A stretch of DNA of 64,000 bases. It comes from Nitrospirales bacterium (GTDB lineage Bacteria; Nitrospirota; Nitrospiria; Nitrospirales; UBA8639). This document shows, piece after piece, positions 3,839 to 64,000 of the stretch. Under the pieces are notes generated by a model. It saw only the letters and a list, made by a program, of their open reading frames with translations. It ran no database searches and was not told the DNA's origin. Position numbers and translations under genes: made by a program. Each line of letters starts with the position of its first letter. Position 1 is the stretch's first letter. The DNA is taken from the NCBI GenBank assembly GCA_963555755.3, contig OY820905.2, forward strand, positions 1,728,001 to 1,792,000. The letters are read 5' to 3'.

Positions 3839-5044
3839 ATGCCAAACTCCCCACACACATACAAGGACTTAGCCCCACCTCGACGCCTCTTATTGGGGCC
3901 AGGGCCAAGCATGGTGCACCCTCGTGTCTTACAAGCGATGAGTACCCCACTCCTGGGACACCTTGATCCTGAATTTCTGGCCATCATGGATGAGATTCAG
4001 GAACTGCTCCGATGGATTTTTCAGACGGACAATGCATTGACCATTGCGGTGTCGGGGACAGGGTCGGCAGCGATGGAAACGGCTATCGTGAATCTGATTG
4101 AACCTGGAGATCGCGTGGTTGTTGGAATCAACGGGGTCTTTGGCACACGTATCGCCCAGATGGTTACACGATGTGGCGGAACAGTTGTCGCCATTGAGGT
4201 ACCTTGGGGGCAACCTATTCCCTTGGACCGGATCGCCCACATTCTACAAACGGCTGGACCAATCAAAGCGGTCGCACTCGTTCACGCGGAAACGTCCACC
4301 GGCGTTTGGCAATCATTGGAACACATCGGGCCACTCTGTCATGACCATGGCGCGCTCTTGATTGTGGATGCGGTGACGTCCCTCGGCGGCATTCCCGTGC
4401 AGGTGGATGCGTGGCACATTGATGCCTGTTACTCTGCTACACAGAAATGCCTGAGCTGTCCACCAGGGCTGGCACCACTGACATTCAGCCAGCGCGCGAA
4501 AGACGTGATCCGCAATCGACACACCCCGTGCCAAAGCTGGTATCTCGATTGCACCCTCGTGGCCGACTACTGGACTGAAGGGAAACGCACCTATCACCAT
4601 ACCGCTCCAATTTCCATGTCCTACGCGTTACGCGAAGCACTTCGACTGATACACGAGGAAGGGCTCGACCCGCGTTTTGTCCGTCACCAGCAGAACAGCC
4701 AAGCGCTTCGTGCCGGACTGGAAGCCCTGGGGTTCGCCCTCGTCCCTCCCGCTGACCAGAGCCTCCCGACCCTCACCTGCGCCTCTCTCCCAGAGTGGCT
4801 GGATGACAAAACCGCTCGGTCAACCCTTCTTCAAGATTTCAACATCGAAGTTGGGGGAGGATTAGGGCCCCTCGCCGGCAAGGTGTGGAGAATAGGGCTC
4901 ATGGGCGAATCATCAACCTTTGAGTCGGTCATGACCTTACTTGCGGCCTTGGAGCAGATTTGTTCACACGTCGCCCCGTCACACTCTTTGGGCCAATCGA
5001 TGACGGCAGCCCTCAAAGAATATTCAGCCTTTGCTCATCCCTGA
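3839..5044 (+). CDS. Alanine-glyoxylate/serine-pyruvate aminotransferase (class V PLP)
   Basis: LLLGPGP, HAETSTG, DAVTS, ATQKCLSCPPG (PLP lysine), RIGLMG motifs. Confidence 0.92.
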   Translation: MPNSPHTYKDLAPPRRLLLGPGPSMVHPRVLQAMSTPLLGHLDPEFLAIMDEIQELLRWIFQTDNALTIAVSGTGSAAMETAIVNLIEPGDRVVVGINGVFGTRIAQMVTRCGGTVVAIEVPWGQPIPLDRIAHILQTAGPIKAVALVHAETSTGVWQSLEHIGPLCHDHGALLIVDAVTSLGGIPVQVDAWHIDACYSATQKCLSCPPGLAPLTFSQRAKDVIRNRHTPCQSWYLDCTLVADYWTEGKRTYHHTAPISMSYALREALRLIHEEGLDPRFVRHQQNSQALRAGLEALGFALVPPADQSLPTLTCASLPEWLDDKTARSTLLQDFNIEVGGGLGPLAGKVWRIGLMGESSTFESVMTLLAALEQICSHVAPSHSLGQSMTAALKEYSAFAHP

Positions 5045-5048
5045 TTAA

Positions 5049-5376
5049 CCCTAGAAACGGCAGTTGGGCGCAAAAAATCCGTGTAAGATATTGGGGTGTA
5101 TGGTGAAATAAAAAAAGTCGTGGTCACCTCGGTGGTGATGAGACATTTTTTTATTTTGCCAGGTGCGCCCAGGAGCCTGTCCAAGATTAGGGATCGTTGC
5201 GAGGGGGTGTTGGTTTGAGTCAGATGTTTCGATCGTTTGAGGCGAATAGTGGTGCCTATTTAACGAAAAGGATCGGAAGATCTGGCCAAATCCAGCGCAC
5301 CCTCGCAACATTCCTAATCTTGGACAGGCTCCTAGAGCTTGCGCGGACTTTTGTGATCCAACTGCTGTTTCTAGGT
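5049..5376 (+). mobile_element. MITE family C copy 2 (hosts element I1)
   Basis: TIR (A/C)CCTAGAAACGGCAGTTGG / CCAACTGCTGTTTCTAGGT; TAA duplicated at 5046-5048 and 5377-5379. Confidence 0.88.
5173..5331 (+). mobile_element. MITE family I copy 1, nested in C2
   Basis: TIR GAGCCTGTCCAAGATTAG / CTAATCTTGGACAGGCTC; flanks CCAG / CTAG; absent from the C copy at 11197-11521. Confidence 0.85.
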
Positions 5377-5598
5377 TAAAATACACATCTTCTTACCATA
5401 TGGCTGCCCCTCCAAAGTGGCCAGGCAAGTCAGATACTTTTCCGCAGACCCACTCCGTTTGTGAGGAACCTGCCTTCCCCAATACTCCCCGTCTGATACC
5501 GTTCGTCTGTATTCCCTCAGTATGATCACTGTTCCCCTTACTTACTCCTCTCCTCGTAAGATTAAAGAGTACTGAAAAAAATCCCGATCAACAATTAA

Positions 5599-5780
5599 GG
5601 GTTTGTTAAAAATTAACTTGGACAAGATCACGTCAAGATTTGGGTCGGATTCGGACGTAACGATTGAGAAAAAACTGAGGCATAGCACCGCTATGGTGAG
5701 GCTTTTTTTCGATTGAGACGCGTTCAAAGATGGCCCGAAGATGGGATGCAAGAATGTTAAAGTTATTTTTTAACATGCCC
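5599..5780 (+). mobile_element. MITE family F variant (F0)
   Basis: TIR GGGTTTGTTAAAAATTAACTT / AAGTTATTTTTTAACATGCCC; TAA on both sides; interior homologous to 25940-26118. Confidence 0.82.
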
Positions 5781-5783
5781 TAA

Positions 5784-5940
5784 GGGTTCGCGCAAGAATA
5801 ACTTCCCCTGTTTGGGTGCTGAGACGCCTGTCTGGCAAGGCGCGAGGACTGCGCATACTCTTCGTATGGAAAGGACGAGCAACGCCGCCAGACAGGATGG
5901 ATCGACGCCCAAACAGGGGAAGTTATTCTTGCGCGAACCC
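5784..5940 (+). mobile_element. MITE family B copy 2
   Basis: Long near-perfect TIRs; TAA duplication, left TAA shared with F0. Confidence 0.9.
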
Positions 5941-6129
5941 TAAGGCCAGCGGAAGGAACCATGGGCCTATCCGAGACCCCAGACGTACGTGAGACAAACC
6001 CAAATATTGACGAGAGACCCGTTCCAACAGCGCCAAAACCAATCCAAATTCCGCTGTGGGAACAACTCCTATTGACGATACACTTCATGCAGTTCTCTTT
6101 ATTTTCATCAATGCACTCATGGCCACACG

Positions 6130-7590
6130 ATGAATAATTTACGACTCGACTCAAAACACACTCCGGGCTTTGATGAAATGTTTGAAGCCCCCAATACTCC
6201 CCGCCGACACTACCAACAACTGATCGAACGTCTGGATCAACTCCCGCCCCACGACCTTGAATTGAAACGCCGCCAGGCTGACCAAGCATTTCTTCGGCAA
6301 GGGATTACCTTCACGGTCTACGACGAGCCGGATCAAACCGAACGGATTTTTCCGTTTGATCTCCTGCCACGGATTATTCCAAACAGTGAATGGCGGATCC
6401 TGGAAGATGGCCTCCGGCAACGAATCCGGGCCTTGAATCTCTTTCTGCTGGATATTTACGGCAAGCAATCCATTCTTCGGGATGGCCGGATTCCCCGTGA
6501 ACTCGTGGAAACAGCCACGCACTTCCAACCTGACCTCATTGGGTTTCGCCCTCCCAAAGATATTTTCATTCATATTTCGGGCATCGATCTTATTCGGGAC
6601 CAAGATGGGACGTATCGGGTATTGGAGGATAACGTTCGTACCCCCTCTGGAATCTCGTATGTCTTAGAAAACCGGATGGTCATGAAGCACACCTTCCCCA
6701 ATCTGTTTACGGAAATGCGGGTCAGACCCATCGACCACTATCCCACACAATTATGGGAAAACTTGAGATTCCTGGCCAATGACACGCGCGAACACCCCAC
6801 GATCGTGCTCCTCACTCCTGGAGTCTGCAACTCAGCCTATTTCGAACACTCGTTCCTCTCACTCCAAATGGGCATCGAGTTGGTCGAAGGTCGAGACTTA
6901 GTGGTGGAAAACGATCGTGTCTACATGAAAACCACGCACGGACTCCAACAAGTCGATGTCATCTACCGACGAGTAGACGATGCGTTTCTTGATCCCGAAG
7001 TCTTCCGGCACGACTCAGCCCTCGGGGTGCCCGGGCTCATGCGTGCCTACCGGGCCGGGAACGTGGCTCTCGCCAACGGCATTGGGACCGGCGTGGTTGA
7101 TGACAAAGCGGTGTATTCCTTCGTTCCAACCATGATTGAATATTATCTCAGCGAAACCCCGATCCTGCCGAGTGTGCCAACGTATCTCTGCGTGAACGAT
7201 GAACAACGCCAATTCGTGCTCGACAATCTTGCCAATTTGGTGGTGAAGTCGGTCGACGAATCAGGCGGATACGGCATGCTGATCGGCTCCGCATCAACCC
7301 AGACGCAACGAGAAGATTTCCGGAAACGGATTATCGCGGAACCGCGCAAGTATATTGCGCAACCCATCATGCCCCTTTCCCAACACCCCTGTATCGTGCC
7401 CAACAGTACTGGGGACTTACACCTCTCCGGCCGTCACATCGATTTGAGACCGTTTATTCTTTGGGGACAAGACATTTCCATTTCTCTTGGAGGACTGACG
7501 AGAGTCGCTCTCCAGGAAGGATCGTTGGTCGTGAACTCATCCCAGGGTGGTGGCAGCAAAGATACCTGGGTGCTGTATGGAGAAGGCTGA
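6130..7590 (+). CDS. Circularly permuted ATP-grasp type 2 protein (predicted peptide ligase)
   Basis: [63 protein letters not shown] motifs. Confidence 0.93.
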
Positions 7591-9576: not shown

Positions 9577-11055
9577 GTGATCTGGAATCTGTTTGGACGC
9601 GGAAAGGGACCGGAACCTCCGCAAAAGGATTTGGGGCCCTATTCAAACTACCGGTTGGCTGTGAGACTCGAACTGACTCAGAAACTCGGAGTCTTTGCGG
9701 AAGTGGCCACACTGTTAGCGGAAGAAGGGGCCAGTCTTGGTGCGGCGGATATTGTCTCCGCGTCAAAATCTACCGTGGTCCGTGACATTACTTTTGACGC
9801 CAAAAACGAAGAGCATGGACAGAAAATATTAGAACTGTTGGACCTACTCGACGACGTGAAGGTCATTTCAGCCTCTGATCGTATTTTCATGATGCACGTG
9901 GGTGGGAAAATCCAGGTGAGCAGTAAGTTTCCCATCAACAACCGAAATACCCTTTCAATGGCGTATACGCCAGGCGTGGGTCGCGTCTGTCAAGCCATTG
10001 CCGGTGATCCATCTTTGGCCTATCGATTTACGAGTAAGGGCAACAGTATCGCCGTCGTCACCGACGGGTCCGCGGTTCTCGGACTAGGGAGTCTTGGTCC
10101 CGAAGCGGCACTGCCGGTCATGGAAGGGAAAGTCATGCTCTTCCACCAATTCGCAGGAATCGATGCCTGGCCGATTTGCCTGGATACCAGAGATCCGGAT
10201 GAAATCATCAAGATCGTGTCGGCCATCGCCCCAAGTTTTGGGGGCATCAACCTTGAAGATATTAGCGCTCCACGCTGCTTTGAGATTGAACGGCAATTGC
10301 AGGACAAGCTTGATATTCCGGTGATGCACGATGACCAACATGGAACTGCCGTCGTGGTTTTGGCCGCACTCCATAATGCGCTCACCGTGACCCACCGTCG
10401 GTTAGAGGATATCACGATTGTCGTGAATGGCCTTGGCGCAGCCGGCACCGCATGCTGCCAATTGCTCCTTGCTGCGGGACTCCAACACTTGAGAGGCTGT
10501 GACAAGCAGGGATTTGTCCTCAGAGGCGAGACGCAGGAACTGTATAATCGGCGCAATACCCTTCCTGCCATCATCCAATATGACAAACCCATTGGCACAT
10601 TGCGCGATGCGCTCCAAGGCGCGGACGTGTTCATCGGGCTTTCCACGGGGAATGTCTTGCAACCACAGGATCTTGATCTCATGGCTCAAGACCCCATCGT
10701 GTTTGCGCTCGCGAATCCCGACCCGGAATTAGCCCCTGAAGCCGCGCATAATCATTGCCGGATCTATGCGAGTGGTCGGTCGGACTACCCCAATCAGAGC
10801 AATAACTTATTGGCCTTTCCCGGAATCTTTCGAGGGGCGTTAGATGTTCAGGCCAGGACCATTAATGAATCCATGCAACTTGCTGCCGCTGGTGCCTTAG
10901 CTGATGTCATCCCTGCTTCATCCCTCAGTGAAGAATACATTATTCCGAGCGTCTTCAATAAACACGTGGTTCCAGCCGTGGCCCAAGCCGTCGCCAAGGC
11001 CGCACAAGAAACCGGCGTGGCCCGAAAAACGTCGCAACATCTGATAACAGAATAG
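9577..11055 (+). CDS. NAD(P)-dependent malic enzyme with N-terminal ACT domain (start uncertain: GTG 9577 or ATG 9520)
   Basis: AYTPGV, VTDGSAVLGLG, PVMEGK, INLEDI, HDDQHGTA, GLGAAG, ALANP, GRSDYPNQ motifs. Confidence 0.92.
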   Translation: MIWNLFGRGKGPEPPQKDLGPYSNYRLAVRLELTQKLGVFAEVATLLAEEGASLGAADIVSASKSTVVRDITFDAKNEEHGQKILELLDLLDDVKVISASDRIFMMHVGGKIQVSSKFPINNRNTLSMAYTPGVGRVCQAIAGDPSLAYRFTSKGNSIAVVTDGSAVLGLGSLGPEAALPVMEGKVMLFHQFAGIDAWPICLDTRDPDEIIKIVSAIAPSFGGINLEDISAPRCFEIERQLQDKLDIPVMHDDQHGTAVVVLAALHNALTVTHRRLEDITIVVNGLGAAGTACCQLLLAAGLQHLRGCDKQGFVLRGETQELYNRRNTLPAIIQYDKPIGTLRDALQGADVFIGLSTGNVLQPQDLDLMAQDPIVFALANPDPELAPEAAHNHCRIYASGRSDYPNQSNNLLAFPGIFRGALDVQARTINESMQLAAAGALADVIPASSLSEEYIIPSVFNKHVVPAVAQAVAKAAQETGVARKTSQHLITE

Positions 11056-11196
11056 GATGGGATAATCTTATCCTTCCCCTTCCCCACCACCGGTTTCGTT
11101 TTTACTACCATCACGTCACGAACTCTGACTCTCCGAGGCCCACTCCGGTGATGAGCACAGACGAAAATTCCTCCAGCCAGGGTTGAATACACTTCA

Positions 11197-11521
11197 ACCT
11201 AGAAACAGCAGTTGGATCACAAAAGTCCGAGAAAGCTCTTGGCGCACCTGATAAAATACAAAAAGGTCTCATCACCACTAAGGGTTCGCGCAACAATAAC
11301 TTTCCCTGTTTGGGTGCTGAGACACCTGTCTGGCAAGGCGCGAGGACTGCGCATACTCCTCGTATGGAAAGGACGAGCAACGCCGCCAGGCGGGATGGAT
11401 CGACGCCCAAACAGGGCAAGTTATTGTTGCGCGAGCCCTAAGGCAACCACGCCTTTTTGTCTTTCACCATGCACACCAATATCTTACACGTCTTTTTTGC
11501 GCCCAACTGCCGTTTCTAGGT
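11197..11521 (-). mobile_element. MITE family C copy 3 (inverted; hosts B3)
   Basis: Same TIRs as C2; TCA duplicated at 11194-11196 and 11522-11524. Confidence 0.88.
11282..11438 (+). mobile_element. MITE family B copy 3, nested in C3
   Basis: TAA-GGGTTCGCG...CGCGAGCCC-TAA. Confidence 0.9.
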
Positions 11522-11832
11522 TCAAAGCCAAAAACGGAACATGCATGCGAGCGCGTTCATAGGAAAACCGCAGCCCTCTTCACCTCCCAATAATACGGAG
11601 ATTCACCCATAAAGAATCTCTTCAGTTAGACCGAAAACTTGATGAGTCTAGAGTACTGATAGGTCTCCTCAATTGTTCATTGTTCGGTATGCTTGGGTGA
11701 GATCAGGCAATATTGGTGAAGGAGCAGGAAATGTGGCTCCATCGGGAGAAGACCGGATACTTCGGCACGAACAATGATTCATCGTTACTGAAGATATAGT
11801 AGGAAAAGATTCCCTTCCCTGAGATTCGCATT

Positions 11833-21562: not shown

Positions 21563-21901
21563 TCATTCATGGACCTTCCGTGCAGGCAAGGATAAACGCA
21601 CAGTTAATTGATCCCCCATGGCCTTAATCGCATATCGGAGCCCCTTGTCGAGCGGATGGTTAAGATCAAACACAACCCGTAATTTCTTGGGATGTTGACC
21701 AATCCGAATTCGTTTCAGCAGCAGATGATCGACAGGCAATACTTGAAAGCGAATCGCCGAGACAACATTCGGCAGATCAAGACTCAATCGCTGTGAGTCA
21801 ACCGGACTGAGTCGATACGTCAGAGGACCAGTACCTTGAATCACAATGGTAATGTCATCAACTCCCCGTTGAACGACAATTTTTTTAATAGCACGTCTCA
21901 A
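21563..21901 (-). CDS. Stand-alone AMIN domain in pilQ position (possible pilQ remnant)
   Basis: RLSLDLPN...KRIRIGQHPKKLRVVFDL resembles AMIN; no signal peptide, no secretin domain, TTG start. Confidence 0.6.
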   Translation of the reverse strand: MRRAIKKIVVQRGVDDITIVIQGTGPLTYRLSPVDSQRLSLDLPNVVSAIRFQVLPVDHLLLKRIRIGQHPKKLRVVFDLNHPLDKGLRYAIKAMGDQLTVRLSLPARKVHE

Positions 21902-21913
21902 ATATTCTCATTC

Positions 21914-22071
21914 GGGTTCGCACAAAAATAACTTCCTATGTTTGGGTGTTGATGCGCCTGTCTGGCAAGGCGCGAGGACTCCGCATACTCCTCGGTATGG
22001 AAAGGACGAGCAACGCCGCCAGACGGGATGGATCGACGCCCAAACATAGAAAGTTATTCTTGCGCGAACCC
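21914..22071 (+). mobile_element. MITE family B copy 4 (degenerate flanks); supplies the pilP stop codon
   Basis: GGGTTCGC...GCGAACCC; overlaps the last codons of the pilP-like ORF. Confidence 0.87.
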
Positions 22072-22569
22072 TTTGTGAGAAAACACTAACGTCTTTTTTA
22101 ATATGTGATTGTCGTCTTGTGCATCCAACAATCTGGTAAGCACCACCGTATTCCTGGTGATCCGAGTGACTCTTTCAGATGTCTTTTCCAGGACGCTCCC
22201 TGGCCCAACCATGACACGCTCCCCATTCGGCAATTTCAAAAGAGCCTGATACCCTCGTTTTCCAGAAATGATTCCGAGTAGCGTCACTGTGCTCTCAGGG
22301 TTTCCTGAATCCGATAATTCAGTAGCGTCAGACTCGTCTGGGGAACCGGGAAATGGCAAAGGAACAAAAGGATCTCGACGGTTTCCAACGTGATAAGTGT
22401 AGGGTTGACTCACAGCCTGTTCAAAGAGCGATTCTGCCAATTCCAAGACAGGACGAGGCTCCGGCATCTGTGCCGAAACAAATACGGGATCGGCGATTCC
22501 CATTCCGGTTATTCCCAGGGCTAGGGAGGCCGCAAAAAAAATGTTGGGCAAACATGGAATCCGCTCCAT
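22054..22569 (-). CDS. pilP: PilP-like protein
   Basis: YTYHVGNRRDPF, LLGIISG..ALL motif; position after pilO. Confidence 0.75.
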   Translation of the reverse strand: MERIPCLPNIFFAASLALGITGMGIADPVFVSAQMPEPRPVLELAESLFEQAVSQPYTYHVGNRRDPFVPLPFPGSPDESDATELSDSGNPESTVTLLGIISGKRGYQALLKLPNGERVMVGPGSVLEKTSERVTRITRNTVVLTRLLDAQDDNHILKKTLVFSHKGFAQE

Positions 22570-47040: not shown

Positions 47041-48246
47041 TTACCCTAAGATTTCCGTGACCACACCGGCGCCCACCGTGCGGCCACCTTCCCGCACCGC
47101 AAACCGCACACCCTTCTCCATCGCAATCGGCGCAATCAATTCCCCCGTAAACGTCGTGTTATCGCCCGGCATCACCATCTCGACCCCTTCGGCCAAGTTC
47201 ACAATGCCCGTCACGTCGGTCGTCCGAAAGTAAAACTGGGGACGATACCCATTGAAAAACGGCGTGTGCCGCCCACCTTCATCCTTGTTTAACACGTACA
47301 CTTCGGCTTTGAACTTCGTATGCGGGGTAATACTCTTCGGCTTCGCCAGCACCATCCCCCGCTCCACTTCGTCCTTCTTCGTCCCCCGCAACAGGGCCCC
47401 AATGTTATCCCCGGCTTGCCCATCATCCAACACTTTCCGGAACATCTCCACCCCTGTCACCGTCGTGGTCCGCGTATCGGCTAATCCGACAATTTCAATT
47501 TCATCCCCCACCTTGACCTTCCCACGTTCGACCCGCCCGGTCACCACGGTGCCCCGACCGCTGATCGTAAATACATCTTCAATGGGCATCAGGAAGGGTT
47601 TGTCAATGGCCCGCTCTGGCATCGGAATATACGAATCAACGGCTTCCAAGAGCTTCAGAATCGAGGGCACGCCAATGTCGCTGGTGTCCCCTTCGAGCGC
47701 TTTGATCGCCGAGCCGGTTATAATGGGAATGTCATCCCCTGGGAATTGATACTTCGACAACAACTCGCGCACTTCGAGTTCGACTAACTCCAACAACTCA
47801 GGGTCTTCCACTTTGTCGGCTTTATTCAAGAACACGACGATGTACGGCACCCCAACTTGCCGGGCCAGCAGAATATGCTCGCGCGTTTGCGGCATCGGCC
47901 CATCCGCGGCGGAAACCACCAAAATCGCCCCATCCATTTGCGCAGCACCCGTAATCATATTCTTGACATAGTCGGCATGCCCGGGGCAGTCCACATGCGC
48001 GTAGTGCCGATTCTCGGTCTCATATTCCACATGGGAGATCGCGATGGTTAAGATCTTCGTCGGATCCCGTCGGCCTTGGGATTCACTGGCTTTGGCCACT
48101 TGATCATAGGAGACATAAGTGGCCAACCCCTTATCCCCCATCACCTTCGTCAAGGCCGAGGTGAGGGTCGTCTTCCCATGGTCCACATGCCCAATCGTCC
48201 CCACATTCAAATGCGGCTTCTTCCGATCAAATTTCGCCTTCGCCAT
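47041..48246 (-). CDS. tuf: Elongation factor Tu (str-operon copy)
   Basis: [20 protein letters not shown]; atypical switch I. Confidence 0.99.
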
Positions 48247-54500: not shown

Positions 54501-55761
54501 GATGTTCACGAATGACCTCGTCCAAGACATCCCACACCTCTGGTCGTTCTTTCTCTACAAGTCGTTTGGCACTCTTAATGGTTGTCGCAGCCCCACGTTC
54601 TTCCAACTTATGAAAAATGAAGGGCTTGAAAAGCTCAAGGGCCATCTTCTTGGGCAACCCACATTGATTGAGTTTCAGCTCTGGCCCTACGACAATGACG
54701 GATCGACCGGAATAGTCAACGCGCTTTCCTAAAAGGTTTTGCCGGAACCGACCCTGCTTCCCTTTCAACATGTCGCTCAAGGATTTGAGGGGACGTTTGT
54801 TCGCACCACGAATGGTCCGCCCACGCCGTCCATTATCAAATAACGCATCAACGGCTTCTTGCAACATCCGCATTTCATTGCGAATAATCACGCCTGGCGC
54901 TTTTAATTCAACCAATCGCTTTAACCGATTATTGCGATTGATCACACGACGATACAGATCATTTAAATCCGATGTCGCGAAACGTCCTCCATCCAAGGGA
55001 ACAAGAGGACGAAGCTCCGGTGGAAGTACCGGAATCACATCCATAATCATCCACTCCGGCTTGTTTCCAGACTTTATGAACGCCTCAATCACCTTCAGGC
55101 GCTTGGTGAGCTTTTTCGTGCCAGCGACGGAAGTGGTCGACTTCACCTTTTCATGCCGCTCATTCCACAACGTTTCGATATCAACTTTTCGTAATAATTC
55201 ACGAATAGCTTCTGCTCCAATCCCCACTCGAAATCCTTGGGAACCATATTGATCAAAATATTCGCGATACTTTTCTTCCGTCAGAAGTTCATTTTCCTTG
55301 AGAGGCGTATCTCCTGGGTCAATGACCACATACGATTCAAAATAGAGAATTTTCTCCAACTGTTTGAGACTCATGTCCAACAAAATCCCAATCCGACTCG
55401 GCACGCCTTTTAAAAACCAAATGTGCGCAACGGATGCCGCCAATTCAATATGCCCCATCCGCTCACGACGGACCTTCGACTGGATGACTTCTACCCCACA
55501 TTTATCACAGACAATGCCGCGGTGCTTCATCCGCTTATATTTCCCACAATTGCATTCCCAATCTTTCGTCGGGCCAAAAATTTTGGCGCAGAACAACCCG
55601 TCCTTTTCAGGTTTAAAGGACCGGTAGTTAATCGTCTCGGGCTTCTTCACTTCCCCGTAGGACCACGAGCGAATTTTCTCTGGCGAAGCAATTCGAATAC
55701 GCATTGCATCAAAGGACACGGCATCGCGTGGCTTTTCAAACAGCGCATAAATGCTTTTCAA
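51586..55761 (-). CDS. rpoC: RNA polymerase beta' subunit
   Basis: [12 protein letters not shown] active-site motif; TTG start after GAGGAGG. Confidence 0.99.
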
Positions 55762-55812
55762 GGTTTGACCCTCCTCATTAAAACACTCGTGATAAACACT
55801 CTAGCCATGAAT

Positions 55813-58800
55813 CTATTCCGTGGACTTCATCAATTCGACATCGAGACCTAAACTCTGGAGTTCCTTCACCAACACATTGAAAGACTCCGGCAATCCAGGT
55901 TCCAAGAAATTTTCCCCTTTGACAATCGCTTCATACATGCGCGACCGTCCAGGCACGTCATCGGACTTGACGGTGAGAAATTCCTGCAACGTCGAAGCGG
56001 CTCCATAGGCTTGCAAGGCCCACACTTCCATTTCCCCTAAGCGCTGTCCACCAAACTGGGCTTTCCCACCCAACGGTTGCTGCGTCACAAGAGAGTACGG
56101 ACCAATGGACCGAGCATGAATTTTATCATCAACCAAGTGATGCAACTTCATCATGTACACATATCCAACTGTCACAGGACTTTTGAACGGTTCACCCGTA
56201 CGACCATCAAGCACGACGGATTGCCCAGATTGAGATAAGCCGGCTTTTGTCAAGAGGTCCTTGACTTCCAGCTCAGTAGCTCCTTCAAAGACCGGGCTAG
56301 CCACATGAATGCCCAAGGCTTTGGCCGCCCACCCCAGATGGGTTTCCAAAATTTGTCCCACATTCATCCGCGAAGGTACCCCAAGCGGATTCAAGACAAT
56401 TTCCAACGGCGTGCCGTCCGGCAAATAGGGCATGTCTTCTTCAGGAAGAATGCGCGAGACCACCCCTTTATTGCCATGCCGACCGGCCATTTTATCTCCG
56501 ACGGAAATCTTGCGCTTAATCGCCAAATACACCTTGACCAACTTGATGACGCCAGGCGGCAATTCATCGCCACGCCGAAGTCGCCCAACCTTTTCATCAT
56601 AATAGGTTTGGAGGATTTCGATTTGATCTTTGGCGGCATGCTCAATATCCTCGAGTTTTTTCTGTTCCTCGGAATCACTAAGAAGGACTCGCCGAACATT
56701 ATCGTCGGATAATTTCCGCAAGACCTCTGCGGTGATCTTCCCCTTCCTCTTTAAAATGACCTCGCCACTGTCATGGTCCATAAGATCACGGCCCACGACT
56801 TGGCCGAGCAGAAGCTTACGCAGTCGCTTGGCCCGCTCTTCCTCAATAATACGAAGCTCCTCTTGATAGTTGCGTTCAATCTTGACTCGATCTTGCGATT
56901 CAATGTCTTTGGACCGCTCATCCTTATCAAGGCCTTTCCGAGAAAAGATTTTGACATCGACAACGATTCCCTCGATTCCAGGAGGAACTTGAAGCGAGGT
57001 ATCTTTTACATCCCCGGCTTTCTCGCCAAAAATCGCTCGCAACAATTTCTCTTCCGGAGTCAGCTGCGTCTCGCCTTTCGGCGTCACCTTGCCAACCAGG
57101 ATATCTCCAGGCTTCACCTCAGCCCCAATACGCACGATGCCACTTTCATCAAGATTCCGCAGAGCCTCTTCACCCAGATTGGGAATATCTCGGGTGATCT
57201 CTTCTTTCCCTAGCTTGGTATCGCGCGCCTCAACTTCAAACTCTTCAATATGAATCGACGTGAAGATATCGTCTCGCACCAGTTTCTCGCTGAGCAGAAT
57301 CGCGTCCTCAAAATTGTACCCACCCCACGGCATAAATCCGACAAGGATATTTTTACCAAGAGCCAATTCTCCTCGATCAATGGAGGGGCCATCTGCCAAC
57401 ACTTGCCCTTTTTTGACCGGCTGACCAACCTGGACCACCGGCGTTTGGGTCACACAAGTGTTTTGGTTCGTACGTTGAAACTTGACCAGGTCATAGGTAT
57501 CCAAAAATCGTTTACTCTTCCCCTTATCATTATCTTTTTTGCCCAGTTCCGTTCTCACCACGATTCGACGAGCATCGACGCTTTCGACAATTCCGTCACG
57601 GCGCGCTTGCTCAACATATCCGGAGTCTCTCGCAACCACAGCCTCCATCCCTGTCCCAACGAGCGGGGCTTCACTTTGAAGCAACGGAACGGCTTGTCGC
57701 TGCATATTTGAGCCCATCAAGGCGCGGTTCGCGTCATCATGCTCGAGAAAGGGAATCAACGCGGTAGCCACACTGACCACTTGCTTGGGCGACACGTCGA
57801 CGTAATCGATTTTATCAGGATCCGCCGTCACAAACTCGCCTGCCGACCGTGCCGTCACCGATTCCCCCACCAATTTTCCACTCGCATCCATTTTCGAGTT
57901 GGCCTGTGCGATAATAAACCGTTCTCCCTCGAGAGGGGAAAGAAATTCCACTTCATTGACAACTCGGCCTTTTCGTACTTTGCGAAACGGCGCCTCAATA
58001 AATCCGAATTCATTGATTCGGGCATACGTCGCCAATGAAGTGATCAAACCGATGTTCGGACCTTCCGGCGTTTCAATCGGACAAATCCGACTATAATGGG
58101 AAGGATGGACGTCACGAACCTCAAACCCCGCACGCTCTCGAGTCAGACCGCCCGGACCCAACGCCGACAACCGACGCTTGTGTGTGATTTCAGCTAAGGG
58201 ATTGGTTTGATCCATAAACTGAGATAATTGGCTCCCGGCAAAAAACTCCTTGATGGCTGCCACAATCGGCTTGGCATTAATTAAATCATGGGGTAACACG
58301 GTTTCCATGTCTAACAGATTCATCCGCTCCTTGATGCTCCGCTCCATCCGAGCCAACCCCAAGCGAATCTGATTTTCCAACAACTCACCAACTGATCGGA
58401 CGCGTCGATTTCCCAAATGATCGATGTCATCCACATCGCCTTTGCCCATTTTCAATTCGACTAAGCCGCGTACCACTTCAATAACATCCTGAGCCGTCAG
58501 GACACGCAGTTCAAGCGAATGGTCCAAGGAAAACCGACTATTCATTTTCAGACGTCCCACCGGAGAGAGGTCGTATCGCTTAGGATTCAAAAACAGGTTT
58601 TCAAAGAGGAGCTTCGCCGAATCGACGGACGGCATTTCCCCTGGCCGAAGGCGCTTGTAAATTTCAACCCAAGCCTCTTCTTTTGACGTGGTCCGCTCGG
58701 CCTCAAGAGTATCTAGAATCACAGGGGTGGTGGCCGTACTATCCAGGTAGATGATTTTGAAGCTCTCAACCCCACTCTCTAAAATTTTTTCGACAGTCGG

Positions 58801-59781
58801 CAGTGCAAACCGTTGATTCTTTTCCAGGATCACCTCACCACTTTTTGGAGCAACCAACTCCGTTAACACCGCACGGCCCACCAATTCATCCGGCTTGACG
58901 GGGATTTCCTTTATTCCCGCGGCACGAAGTTTGGACATGACCCCTTTGGTTAAGCGATTGCCTTCCCGAACCAACGGTTCCTTCGAACCTTTTTCGAACA
59001 CGTCGAGAGAGGTTCGGTGTCCCATATGCAACTCAAGATCAAGTTTACGCATGAACTGCCCATTGACGATGCGAATTTCTTCAACCGGATAATACATTTT
59101 CAGCAATTCATCCGTGGAAAGGCCGAAAGCCTTCAACAAGATCGTCGCCGGCATCTTTCGCCGCCGATCAATTCTGACATACAAAATATCGCGAGCATCG
59201 AATTCAAAATCCAACCACGAACCACGGTAAGGAATAATTCGAGCGGAAAACAGAATCTTCCCACTCGAATGCGTCCGACCTTTATCATGACTAAAGGATG
59301 CACCAGGCGAACGATGCAATTGGCTCACCACCACTCGCTCCGTCCCATTGATGATAAAAGTCCCGCGATCCGTCATCAGCGGGAGCTCCCCGACGTACAC
59401 CTCCTGCTCACGAACATCGAGAACTTTGCCTTTGACGCTTTTATCCTGGCTATCAAACACGACCAAACGAATACGAAGTTTTAAAGGTGCGGCAAAGGTC
59501 ATACCCTGCTCCAAACACTCGCGCACATCATACTTGGGTGTCCCCAACGAATAATTGGTAAACTCAAGAATAGCCGTATTGTTATAATCAGAAATGGGAA
59601 ACACGCTCATTAATGCCGCTTGCAAGCCCTTTTCAGCTCGGCGTTCAGCGTCAGCATCTTTTTGCAAAAAAGCTTCGTATGATCGTTTTTGCACTTCGAC
59701 CAGATCCGGGATTTCAATAGTCGAAGGAATTTTTGAAAAATCCATTCGCTTGATAAGTCCCGGCAATGTTGGTTGCGGCAT
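55813..59781 (-). CDS. rpoB: RNA polymerase beta subunit (start between 59781 and 59805)
   Basis: [39 protein letters not shown]. Confidence 0.99.
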
Positions 59782-59866
59782 AGTCGGCTCCTTCGACATC
59801 ATCAATACAGGTTAGACAGCCCGTCCTTGGCAATGAGGAACAATCCTCGTCCCTCATCTTCCTTAT

Positions 59867-60259
59867 TTATTTGACTTCTACCGTCGCACCCACATCAGTC
59901 AGTTTCTTCTTTATGACTTCGGACTCATCCTTGTCCACATCCTCTTTGACGGCCTTTGGCACACCCTCCACTAAATCTTTGGCTTCCTTCAAGCCCAACC
60001 CCGTAATCTCTCGCACCACTTTAATCGCTTGGATTTTCTTGTCAGCTGCAAAACCAGTCAAAATCACGTCGAAAGAATCCTGCTCTTCAACGACTGGCGC
60101 AGCGGCCCCTGGTGCTGCTGCTACCGCCACCGGTGCTGCCGCAGTCACTCCAAACTTATCCTCGAAACCTTTGACTAACTCCGAAAGCTCCAATACCGTC
60201 ATGCCTGCCACGGCACTGAGAATGTCCTCTTTTGAAAATTTTGTTTCTGTCGCTGCCAT
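59867..60259 (-). CDS. rplL: Ribosomal protein L7/L12 from internal start
   Basis: AAAGGAG-8 nt-ATG GCA GCG at 60274-60257, in frame with rplJ. Confidence 0.85.
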
Positions 60260-60793
60260 TGAACCGTCTCCTTTCTTTTTTTCCTGTATTGCCGCCAGCA
60301 CAGCCACGAACCCACGAAGAATGCCTTGCATCACGCCAACCATCCCTCGCAGAGGGCCTTGCATGGCGGAAAGCAACATGGACAGCAAGACCTCCTTGGA
60401 CGGTAAATCCGCTGCGGCAATGAGCTGTGCCGGATCGAGAGTGTTTCCTTCTAATACGCCGCCTCGCCATACAATTTTCTCACCACACTTTTCTGCCTTA
60501 ATGAAGTCACGTAAAATTTTGGTGGGCAGAACGGGATCATCATAGCCAATCACCACGGCAACCTGCCCCTTGAACAACGTCTTCACCGACAACAGTGATG
60601 TCCCTTCAACCGCGCGCATCGCGAGCGAATTTTTCACCACTTTGAGTTCAGCGTTGACCCCACGAAGTTGGTGTCGCAACTGCGTCAATTGATTAACCGG
60701 CATTCCGCCACATTCCGTCACGACAGCCAATGTGGCTTTAGAGAATTTTTCGTGCAGATCAGCGATGGCCGTCACTTTATGTTCCTTGTTCAT
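59867..60793 (-). CDS. rplJ: In-frame fusion of ribosomal proteins L10 (aa 1-178) and L7/L12 (aa 179-308)
   Basis: L10 motifs ([16 protein letters not shown]) run without a stop into L12 motifs ([38 protein letters not shown]). Confidence 0.93.
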
Positions 60794-60815
60794 TCAGCAC
60801 TCCTTCTCGACTCCC

Positions 60816-61517
60816 TCACTCGACATTCCGGGTAATCGTTGAACATTCAAGTGGGATACCAGGCCCCATGGTGCTACACATGGTCGCGCCCTTCACATAC
60901 TTCCCTTTACTGGAAGAAGGTTTGGCCTTCATAAGAGAACCAAAAACCGTCTGTGCATTTTCCGAGATTTTGGTGCCTGAGAAAGACGCCTTTCCGATTG
61001 GCACATGCACGATCCCGGCCTTATCCACCTTGTATTCCACGCGCCCTTTGCGAATTTCATCAATCGCCTTGGCCACCTCGAAAGTCACGGTGCCTGTCTT
61101 GGGGTTGGGCATCAACCCTCTTGGACCAAGCACTTTTCCCAATTTACCCACGGAAGCCATAAGATCAGGAGTGGCAATGGCTTTATCAAAATCCAGCCAA
61201 CCTCCTTTTATTTTTTCCAACAGATCATCAGAGCCAACATAATCTGCTCCAGCCTGGCGAGCCTCCTGCTCTTTTTCACCTTTGGCAAAGACCACAATCC
61301 TCACCTTCTTCCCTGTCCCGTGAGGAAGGAGGGTTGTTCCACGGACCATTTGATCGGCTCGTTTAGGATCGACACCTAACCGAACCACCAACTCAACCGT
61401 TTCATCAAATTTCGCCGTGGCAATTTGCTTGACCAGCTCACTAGCCTCCTCCAAGTTATACAACTTCGATTCAACCTTGGACACAGCATGTTGTAATTTC
61501 TTTCCCACTGCCTTCAC
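60816..61517 (-). CDS. rplA: 50S ribosomal protein L1
   Basis: [24 protein letters not shown]. Confidence 0.98.
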
Positions 61518-61536
61518 TCCTCTACAATCTCTAAAA

Positions 61537-61962
61537 TTAGTCCGTGACCGTTATCCCCATGCTCCGAGCGGTGCCTTCAATAATTTTCATGGCACCCTCA
61601 ATATTAATTGCATTCAAATCTGTCATTTTTTGTTTTGAAATTTCCGTCAATTGGACCCGAGAAATGTTCCCGACCTTATCTTTCTGCGGCACGCCAGACC
61701 CTTTAATGATCCCTGCGGCTTTCTTTAACAAATCCGTGGCCGGAGGAGTCTTGGTGATAAAGGTGAAACTCCGATCTTTATAGACCGAAATCACAACAGG
61801 AATGATACTGCCTTCTTGTTTCTGGGTCTTCGCATTAAATTGCTTGCAAAACTCCATAATATTGAGACCATGTTGCCCCAATGACGGACCGACAGGGGGC
61901 GCAGGGTTTGCCTTCCCTGCGGGAATTTGCAATTTAATTTGAGTGATGACCTCCTTCGCCAT
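61537..61962 (-). CDS. rplK: 50S ribosomal protein L11
   Basis: [16 protein letters not shown]. Confidence 0.98.
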
Positions 61963-62058
61963 AGCGTGTTCTCTCTCCTACCAGAAGGTTAACAATGCTT
62001 CACAGCCTCGAAATGGCTTTCATGAATTCCGCTACACAATGTGAAATGTACCGATGGA

Positions 62059-62601
62059 TCATCCACGCTCAATTTGGGAAAAAGCTAATTCCACAGGAGT
62101 TGATCGACCAAAGATGCTCACCAAGGCCTTCACTCGACTATGATCCGAATCCACTTCATCCACCATCCCATTGAACCCCATAAACGGTCCATCAATAATT
62201 CGTACGTTATCGCCCTTAGAAAAGATGATCTGTTCACGAGGAGCTGTCGCCCCGGATTCGATTTGCTTGAGAAGAGATTCAGCCTCTTCATCAGTTAAGG
62301 GAATCGGTCGGGTCCCTCCCCCCACAAATCCCGTGACCTTCGGAGTGTCCTTGATCATCATCATTGTTTCATCTGTGACAGGAGCTTCCAATTCGATCAA
62401 GACATACCCCGGGAAAAACTTTCGCTTGGATGCCCTCCGCTTTCCATCCTTGATTTCTATCACGTCTTCAGTCGGAACTAATACCTGACCCAGCTCTTCC
62501 TGAAGGCCCATTTGAGTCGCACGCTCCCCTAGGGATGCCCTGACCCGCCCTTCATAACCCGCATAGGTGTGAATGACGTACCAACTTTTGCTTTTGGCCA
62601 T
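62059..62601 (-). CDS. nusG: Transcription factor NusG
   Basis: WYVIHTY, FFPGYVL, SIFGRSTPVEL. Confidence 0.98.
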   Translation of the reverse strand: MAKSKSWYVIHTYAGYEGRVRASLGERATQMGLQEELGQVLVPTEDVIEIKDGKRRASKRKFFPGYVLIELEAPVTDETMMMIKDTPKVTGFVGGGTRPIPLTDEEAESLLKQIESGATAPREQIIFSKGDNVRIIDGPFMGFNGMVDEVDSDHSRVKALVSIFGRSTPVELAFSQIERG

Positions 62602-62624
62602 CAAAATACCTCAAATTCTTTTTT

Positions 62625-62816
62625 TTAAAGTATGCGGCTCACAAGCCACACTAAAATAGAATCGATCATGGAAAGGTATAAGGACATGATTACACAAAAG
62701 ACCACCACAACCGAGGTCGACCCAATGGTTTCTTCACGGGTTGGGAAGGACACCTTTTTCAATTCAGACTTCACTTCTGATAAAAATTCAGTAATTCTGC
62801 CCCACAATTTACCCAC
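62625..62816 (-). CDS. secE: Preprotein translocase SecE
   Basis: ELKKVSFP motif plus one TM; upstream of nusG. Confidence 0.95.
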   Translation of the reverse strand: MGKLWGRITEFLSEVKSELKKVSFPTREETIGSTSVVVVFCVIMSLYLSMIDSILVWLVSRIL

Positions 62817-62901
62817 GATGCATTCCTTCTCTTTTGTCCATGCCCCAAAACTTCAAATCTTTCCAATTCTTGGCCATGTACTGGAAACTCAAACTACAGT
62901 T

Positions 62902-62977
62902 TGGCAGGGGCACCAGGACTCGAACCCGGACCATCGGTTTTGGAGACCGACATGCTAGCCATTGACACCATGCCCCT
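62902..62977 (-). tRNA. tRNA-Trp (CCA)
   Basis: 76 nt AGGGGCA...GTCGGT-CTCCAAA-ACCGAT...GGTTCGAGTCC...TGCCCCTGCCA. Confidence 0.97.
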
Positions 62978-63061
62978 TCTCAAGACCCATGAGACGTAAG
63001 GGGTAAAACGGAAGGTGAATAAAAATCTATCGATTCTCGCTTCACCTTTTACTCTTGACCC

Positions 63062-63211
63062 TTATTTCACCTCTTTATGAGGGACATGCTTCCTGCAGAA
63101 CCGACAATACTTTTTCATCTCCAGACGATCCGGATCATTTTTTTTATTTTTCATCGTCGAATAATTTCGCCGCTTACAATCACCACAAGCTAAAGTAATA
63201 ATGACCCGCAT
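63062..63211 (-). CDS. rpmG: 50S ribosomal protein L33, Zn-binding type (not in ORF track)
   Basis: Hand translation [49 protein letters not shown]. Confidence 0.97.
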
Positions 63212-63251
63212 GGTCCCCTACCTTTCGAGAAATATCAAACAACTCCGAATC

Positions 63252-63403
63252 GTAACGACTCAGGTCACTTCCCTTTTGCCTCATGACGGCGTTCCTGTGG
63301 TGCTCGAATCCTCATCCTTTACGAGGACCCCTCAGGACCACCAGGCAGTTCCGCGCTCCTCGCGCCTTGTCCTGAGCCAAAATTGAAGCAACCTGCGAGT
63401 TAC
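63252..63403 (-). mobile_element. MITE family E copy 3 between tuf and rpmG
   Basis: GTAACGACTCAGGT...ACCTGCGAGTTAC; 8-bp flanks TCCGAATC / TCCAAATC. Confidence 0.88.
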
Positions 63404-63415
63404 TCCAAATCTGTA

Positions 63416-64000
63416 TTACCCTAAGATTTCCGTGACCACACCGGCGCCCACCGTGCGGCCACCTTCCCGCACCGCAAACCGCACACCCTTCTCCATCGCA
63501 ATCGGCGCAATCAATTCCCCCGTAAACGTCGTGTTATCGCCCGGCATCACCATCTCGACCCCTTCGGCCAAGTTCACAATGCCCGTCACGTCGGTCGTCC
63601 GAAAGTAAAACTGGGGACGATACCCATTGAAAAACGGCGTGTGCCGCCCACCTTCATCCTTGTTTAACACGTACACTTCGGCTTTGAACTTCGTATGCGG
63701 GGTAATACTCTTCGGCTTCGCCAGCACCATCCCCCGCTCCACTTCGTCCTTCTTCGTCCCCCGCAACAGGGCCCCAATGTTATCCCCGGCTTGCCCATCA
63801 TCCAACACTTTCCGAAACATCTCCACCCCTGTCACCGTCGTGGTCCGCGTATCGGCTAATCCGACAATTTCAATTTCATCCCCCACCTTGACCTTCCCAC
63901 GTTCGACCCGCCCGGTCACCACGGTGCCCCGACCGCTGATCGTAAATACATCTTCAATGGGCATCAGGAAGGGTTTGTCAATGGCCCGCTCTGGCATCGG
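63416..64000 (-). CDS. tuf: Elongation factor Tu, second copy (3' part; runs off window)
   Basis: Near-identical to 47041-47625. Confidence 0.98.

Follow-up and report, generated by a model that had tools for sequence, protein, structure and literature searches.

A fused L10-L12 gene with a conserved internal start in the order Nitrospirales, and its predicted tethered and free L12 products

The L12 stalk of the bacterial ribosome is usually treated as a non-covalent assembly of L10 and multi-copy L12, encoded by two genes. In a 64,000-nucleotide stretch of the genome of a marine Nitrospirales bacterium (the whole of this stretch is referred to below as the window), L10 and L12 are read in a single frame, which raises the question of whether such a gene yields the fused protein only or a free L12 as well. 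The sequence-only reading of this DNA had held that no stop lies between L10 and L12, and the ORF was found to translate into 308 amino acids without one, L10 first and L12 second; the stop codon and spacer that separate rplJ from rplL in the canonical arrangement are absent from the window frame. The gene order at the locus is rplK-rplA-rplJ-rplL-rpoB, with the fused ORF (rplJL) placed between rplA and rpoB. It was the sole L10/L12 match in a whole-genome search of the 99.4%-complete genome, and no second rplL was found in that search. The positions of the features discussed here are given in Table 1.

Table 1. Features of the fused rplJL locus in window coordinates, with the basis of each assignment.
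Feature	Position	Strand	Basis
rplJL fused ORF, uL10-bL12, 308 aa	59867..60793	-	ORF and profile matches; sole genome copy
Shine-Dalgarno (SD) AAGGAG of upstream (L10) start, 6 nt before ATG 60793	60800..60805	-	Sequence; duplex -8.8 kcal/mol
uL10 part, residues 1-173	60275..60793	-	NF000955 residues 4-173; aligned to T. maritima L10 (PDB 1zav) up to residue 173
uL10 C-terminal helix, residues 133-173, full length of three-dimer type	60275..60397	-	Gap-free alignment to 1zav; model helices 133-145 and 148-173, pLDDT about 50-65
14-residue linker, residues 174-187, predicted coil	60233..60274	-	Structure model, pLDDT <50
Internal SD AAAGGAG, codons of Lys174-Gly175-Asp176	60268..60274	-	Conservation; complementary to 16S 3' end of the genome
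Internal in-frame ATG (Met179), predicted start of free bL12	60257..60259	-	8-nt spacer from SD; conservation, weak RNA structure
bL12 part, 130 aa, predicted free L12	59867..60259	-	TIGR00855 residues 185-308
bL12 dimerisation domain, residues 188-232	60098..60232	-	Pfam PF16320
bL12 C-terminal factor-binding domain, residues 241-308	59870..60073	-	Pfam PF00542
A_AAA_AAG slippery-like heptamer directly before inner SD, not conserved	60275..60281	-	Present in 8/56 fused junctions

Both halves of the ORF were assigned by profile. The L10 domain (residues 1-98) scored 93.2 bits against PF00466 (cut-off 22.8) and 154.9 bits against NF000955 (cut-off 85), and the second half belongs to bL12, with PF16320, PF00542, and TIGR00855 all above cut-off and an Ala-rich hinge at residues 215-240 that is coil in the structure model. 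The PRK04019 models of the archaeal L10/P0 family reached 28-36 bits against cut-offs of 331-547, which places the protein outside that family.

The surroundings of the gene were also surveyed. Two tuf copies (47041-48246 and 63416-64000 (-)) lie on either side of the rplK-rpoC-fusA block and a tRNA-Trp(CCA) at 62902-62977 precedes secE, both ordinary arrangements. The gap between rplA and rplJL measures 22 nt (60794-60815, minus strand); of 62 fused loci, 51 have a gap of 12-43 nt here, and short gaps occur in a number of split families as well (f11, f39, and f41 among them). An Rfam scan of 55000-64000 returned the tRNA-Trp only and no L10 leader. Given the short gap and the lack of an Rfam leader, the usual L10-leader autoregulation may be absent or relocated; either would be independent of the fusion, since the gap is short in split families too.

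The fusion is fixed across the Nitrospirales genomes read. Within the order sample, 40 of 41 genomes were matched and the junction was open in all 40, with all four families represented (38 full-length and stop-free; 2 interrupted by a contig end or gap, the junction still open). The phylum sample of 301 genomes matched 91 of 92 order members, with 91 of 91 open (89 full-length plus 2 cut by contig ends); among its 197 matched genomes outside the order, stops were present in every full-length match among the matches listed. A class sample of 401 genomes was stop-free in 150 of 150 among the matches listed. Twenty order genomes were searched again, 8 from family f3 and 12 that had a low score or gave two matches; 16 spanned the junction, all of them open, and the other 4 ended at contig edges. 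For class genomes outside the order the frame was closed in 62 of 63, the sole stop-free one being G352, and direct examination of 40 of these 63 loci at the sequence level found 39 split and 1 fused. Reversal of the fusion to split genes was not found among the Nitrospirales genomes read. The sequence-only reading had suggested that the trait is lineage-wide rather than unique and had proposed a check of the junction across Nitrospirota; the three open-junction counts bear this out, with no stop at the junction in any order genome read.

Two observations concern how the locus is recorded in databases. A record labelled Nitrospinota (L031) carries a fusion 96% identical to that of the window at the coordinates of a same-genus genome, G005, and its phylum label is probably a mislabel. 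Gene callers register the locus in one of two ways, as a protein of 309-311 aa that is named L7/L12 or L10, or as an isolated L12 of 126-133 aa (clusters of L022, L029, and L030), so that the rplJ marker gene can appear absent from such genomes.

The L10 part aligns with that of Thermotoga maritima without a gap over the C-terminal helix. T. maritima L10 binds three L12 dimers, according to PMC1635324, and an L10 helix of three-dimer length means that more L12 than L10 is needed; the C-terminal helix of the fusion, with its L12-dimer binding segments, is likewise predicted to bind L12. An alignment-based structure model (mean pLDDT 65.7, pTM 0.45) was confident in the L10 domain and comprised L10, the two helices and coil listed in Table 1, two L12 N-domain helices, the hinge, and the C-domain; its best structural matches were RplJ and 1zax/1zav, and at this pTM it does not fix the place of the tethered L12 domain. 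The 14-residue coil would span some 45 angstroms by estimate, which is likely enough to reach the outermost dimer site. A single-sequence fold was discarded (pLDDT 38.5).

A free L12 could be initiated within this frame. The AAAGGAG that the sequence-only reading had located 8 nt before an in-frame ATG, from which a 130-aa L12 would be read, is present as described. Chance is an inadequate explanation of this signal given its conservation across the order and its rarity, AAGGAG being found 5-10 nt upstream of 13 of the 13,306 in-frame internal ATGs of long ORFs in the window genome. The pairing strength of the inner start with the 16S tail, which ends GATCACCTCCTTT in the window genome, was matched by 2.1% of 2,040 sampled internal ATGs. 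Among 32 translation-gene starts compared in the window, the inner start was the least structured (-0.2 kcal/mol) and joint sixth in SD strength, its SD duplex reaching -9.4 versus -8.8 kcal/mol upstream. The inner SD was stronger than the upstream SD in 46 of 52 fused loci and the inner start less structured than the upstream start in 35 of the same 52, a set from which five f4 loci (pattern mismatch) and two loci with N gaps had been left out. Weak structure at the rplL start has been reported for Escherichia coli and Bacillus subtilis in PMC13001810.

Codon choice at the inner SD was compared in 47 fused sequences, drawn from families f1 and f2 and from Nitrospirales without a family assignment. 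At the third position of Gly175, 44 have A and 3 have G (0.34 bits), making this the most constrained of 44 conserved fourfold sites, the other 43 of which gave 1.16-1.99 bits, and Lys174 was AAA in 44 of 47, a skew exceeding that at 18 other Lys sites; because the 47 rows are kin and not independent, the codon skew is a pattern and not a P value. A stronger argument comes from the alignments, according to which the inner SD outlasts peptide changes and register shifts. Most of family f3 has AAG GAG GNN, which encodes K-E-[DEAG] and forms AAGGAGG with a shorter spacer; one f2 genome has K-E-E-G-D at the junction with the SD kept; and family f4 has K-G-[MT]-G with a weaker inner SD (-7.1). As judged by sequence comparison, the inner AAAGGAG...ATG is thus under nucleotide-level constraint, and the locus has what is expected of a functional internal start, namely an in-frame start and an SD conserved beyond the need of the protein. 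This constraint favours the earlier proposal that the locus yields a 308-aa fusion and a free 130-aa L12, both being predicted products.

Two further candidate signs of selection were tried. Codon optimality of the L12 half relative to the L10 half, compared after PMC13001810, was uninformative (a difference of 0.06 between halves, standard errors 0.02-0.03); codon bias was weak among the 31 reference genes, and tuf had the lowest score. Linker length was rejected as a sign of selection, the L10 tail and L12 N-terminus of split relatives summing to 63-76 and other fusions measuring 65-86. The L130-V200 distance was 70-73 in 51 of 52 fused loci, the outlier of 80 being a motif mis-pick.

The gene most probably yields an intact tethered L10-L12 together with free L12. 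Initiation at the upstream start would give the 308-aa L10-L12 chain, which would attach to 23S rRNA via its L10 part, and initiation at the inner SD and ATG would give the free 130-aa L12. We infer that ribosomes start more often at the inner site than upstream, which would produce an excess of L12; the upstream SD is itself strong, so a 1:5 ratio would not be explained by SD strength alone. At the outermost helix site, the L12 carried on the 14-residue linker would form a pair with a free L12, giving a stalk of one fusion and five free L12. Alternatively, the tethered L12 may form a seventh arm beside six free L12; the slot-filling geometry is rated somewhat above this one.

Published protein tables bear on these products. 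In supplement file 6 of PMC8407350, the Nitrospira moscoviensis gene appears under the name rplJL and the description 'Multifunctional fusion protein'; 522 spectra and 47 unique peptides are given for it, and the raw proteome is deposited as PRIDE PXD019583. From the same table, the normalised spectral count of the fusion was higher than that of each of the 30 other large-subunit proteins and stood at 2.0x the median for 51 other r-proteins. The 311-aa protein of Nitrospira marina was 1.2x the median of 46 other r-proteins, 14 of which were higher (supplement file 4 of PMC8115632). Ratios of 1.0x if only the fusion is made and of 3.1x if there are six L12 (1:6) are expected. The N. moscoviensis counts thus lean toward extra L12 and the N. 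marina counts do not, the latter falling below 3.1x and counting against an L12 excess; both are published tables without peptide positions. At the RNA level, a single contig of run X5 extended across the gene, which fits transcription of the fusion; a control stretch was covered patchily, 4 of its 30 bins being empty.

An alternative is that the fusion is a precursor, in which case a protease would cut the linker and the mature stalk would consist of ordinary L10 and non-covalent L12 dimers, with the inner start perhaps still supplying most of the L12. Cleaved ribosomal-protein precursors have precedent in L27, processed by Prp, and in ubiquitin fusions, the linker is an exposed coil in the prediction, and Lys174 is invariant and Gly175 nearly so in a 59-row alignment. 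The SD, however, accounts for these conserved junction residues, which differ where its register has shifted, and 21 other fusions (see below) share no peptide motif beyond Gly/Glu-rich codons. The Prp protease (PF04327) was not found in the 99%-complete window genome, in a search whose control was positive in 3 of 14 genomes, and cleavage alone would give a ratio of 1:1 only. Within the scope of PF04327 and the junction residues, the combination of Prp and a conserved cleavage motif that marks the L27/Prp type was therefore not found. The sequence-only reading had offered cleavage of the fusion as its second option; with no Prp and with junction residues that follow the SD register, that option keeps a place only as an improbable one.

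About equally improbable is that the inner start is used mostly on a shorter transcript, made from an inner promoter or by an RNase cut within the L10 part, which would set the L12 excess. This would be compatible with the same two proteins and would alter how their ratio is set, and it would escape competition with ribosomes arriving from upstream. PMC13001810 cites rplJ/rplL cleavage for Streptomyces and reports more rplL RNA than rplJ RNA in E. coli. Against it, no sigma-70-like site was found on the minus strand inside the L10 part, which is a weak test; the promoter scan gave 4 sites versus 2.6 expected, none of them useful.

Production of the fusion only, with the inner SD a relic and the stalk carrying one L12 or formed by fusion chains paired via their L12 domains, is very unlikely: the N. 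marina ratio in the published table is near the 1.0x expectation, but that of N. moscoviensis is not, a relic SD would not keep its wobble bases order-wide or re-form in new registers, and the three-dimer helix is retained. Less likely still is that free L10 continues to be produced by -1 ribosomal frameshifting at the A-rich run before the inner SD. A_AAA_AAG, the slippery heptamer of E. coli dnaX, does occur in phase in the window genome; it is confined to a small minority of fused junctions (Table 1), the position of the next stop in that frame varies between 28 nt ahead of the inner ATG and 197 nt past it, and in the window genome about 38 unrelated residues would be added, so that the conserved slippery heptamer and nearby stop of the dnaX type are not found.

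Loss of a stop codon through sequencing or assembly error, to which the A homopolymer run at the junction lends some colour, can be dismissed, because letter-identical contigs were obtained from three runs, the open frame is common to all four families of Nitrospirales, and no nearby stop is regained by any single indel. Contigs of runs X3, X5 (RNA library), and X6 cover 59500-61600 with 0 differences, X3 and X6 being possibly the source data of the window genome itself, and one X10 contig crosses the junction without an indel. The remark in the sequence-only reading that both alternative frames are free of stops before the L12 start was also correct, their first stops lying past it at 60201 and 60158. 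Elsewhere in the window, at about 5000-6300, 11000-11600, and 21600-22300, the X3 contigs had a depth of 25-90x background and many loose ends; these high-depth stretches are multi-copy repeats, probably insertion sequences.

The fusion looks like the result of a deletion, since the L10 tail and L12 N-terminus of split relatives sum to about the fused length. In those relatives 21-138 nt separate the L10 stop from the L12 start. Loss of this stop and short spacer would have turned the former rplL Shine-Dalgarno into codons, which now read K-G-D/E. In the careful tree, the 12 Nitrospirales rows formed one clade (93/76) and G352 grouped with split genomes of another order (98/97); a topology holding all 13 fused rows together was rejected (p-AU 0.025). 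The separate origin of G352 is supported with RpoB included, and L10 plus L12 alone does not resolve its position. Family f11 was the sister group with a support of 95 in a quick tree and was not resolved in the careful tree. The G352 locus (L070, G352:C122:783-1706) is apparently an independent second fusion, within the class but in a different order; its junction is NAQEGKEEA-MGKL, and an SD-like run precedes the ATG. No further fusion was found among 36 matched genomes of that order, G352 being a single genome.

A search of 1.8 billion cluster representatives ranked the Nitrospirales-type fusion first and returned 21 further full-length L10-L12 proteins, 35-46% identical to the window protein and 27-49% to each other. 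In all, 26 proteins were fetched, and P0207, P0229, P0238, and P0242 were dropped before this count on account of junk-like linkers (likely frameshift errors). Named members of the further clusters belong to Armatimonadota and Chloroflexota/Dehalococcoidia; six of ten clusters looked up are single-member, and errors may therefore be among the 21. When the class to which a Dehalococcoidia genome belongs was sampled, 347 genomes matched and 3 of them were stop-free and full-length, the next best relatives being split; the 347 include one unpublished genome, G829, in the denominator only. At all five fused loci outside Nitrospirales that were examined as DNA, an SD and start codon are present at the junction. 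With 28 fused and 24 split rows in the tree, 10 changes were required, only 2 of them forced by starred branches, and a single clade for the fused rows was rejected (p-AU 0.0008). According to these trees, similar L10-L12 fusions arose repeatedly, and one origin is rejected. A different architecture was also encountered: P0173, P0187, P0190, P0193, and P0198 are 593-1056 aa long and contain 6-8 stretches matching the L12 C-terminal domain.

That the fusion exists is already known to the extent that it is labelled in UniProt (rplJL), and it recurs in other phyla. In N. moscoviensis, a cultured species of Nitrospirales, the gene labelled rplJL is the same fusion, and its entry is a label that carries no inner start, products, or stalk make-up. 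A published study of an L10-L12 fusion was not found in a search that left most subscription journals and bioRxiv supplements outside its range, and the accessible text of PMC3578206 and PMC13001810 contains no discussion of one. With the canonical stalk, uL10(bL12)4 or uL10(bL12)6 (E. coli; T. maritima, 1zav/1zax; PMC1635324), the window protein shares its domains, gene order, and an L10 helix of T. maritima length; it differs in lacking the stop and spacer, in having one L12 predicted to be covalent to L10, and in placing the rplL start within a translated frame.

Internal in-frame starts that give a full-length and an N-terminally shorter protein have been described for E. coli infB, clpB, mrcB, and arcB (bioRxiv 10.1101/520783). 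Like these genes, rplJL is predicted to produce a long and a short protein from one frame via an inner start; unlike them, its frame arose from the joining of two genes, and its short form is the ancestral protein, the predicted major product and partner of the long form. In archaea, aP0-(aP1)6 has seven factor-binding sites, the base having its own C-terminal region like those of the arms, and aP1 has little similarity to bL12 (PMC7768734). The aP0/P0 proteins resemble the fusion in that the stalk base has a factor-binding end of its own, an analogy in working and not in membership; aP0 has only a hinge and short tail, whereas the fusion has a whole arm with a dimerisation domain, and aP1 has its own gene.

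For the order itself, the fusion is a clean character, and its repeated origins elsewhere suggest an easy evolutionary route, whether adaptive or a neutral ratchet. Tentatively, and as a possibility that we hold to be less than even, about ten lineages in several phyla would have repeatedly evolved a stalk base to which an L12 is covalently fixed, one nested gene supplying both this base and free L12. The fixed arm would then act as the bacterial counterpart of the aP0 tail, a factor-binding site that does not exchange and possibly a seventh arm, and would keep a minimal working stalk when free L12 is scarce; the two starts would constitute a single-gene device that sets stoichiometry. The predicted natural tether is order-wide, occurs in the main nitrite oxidisers and in comammox bacteria, and extends to cultured members; it makes directly testable the questions of whether L12 must exchange, whether the outermost arm has its own role, and how an inner start within a translated frame could out-produce the upstream one.
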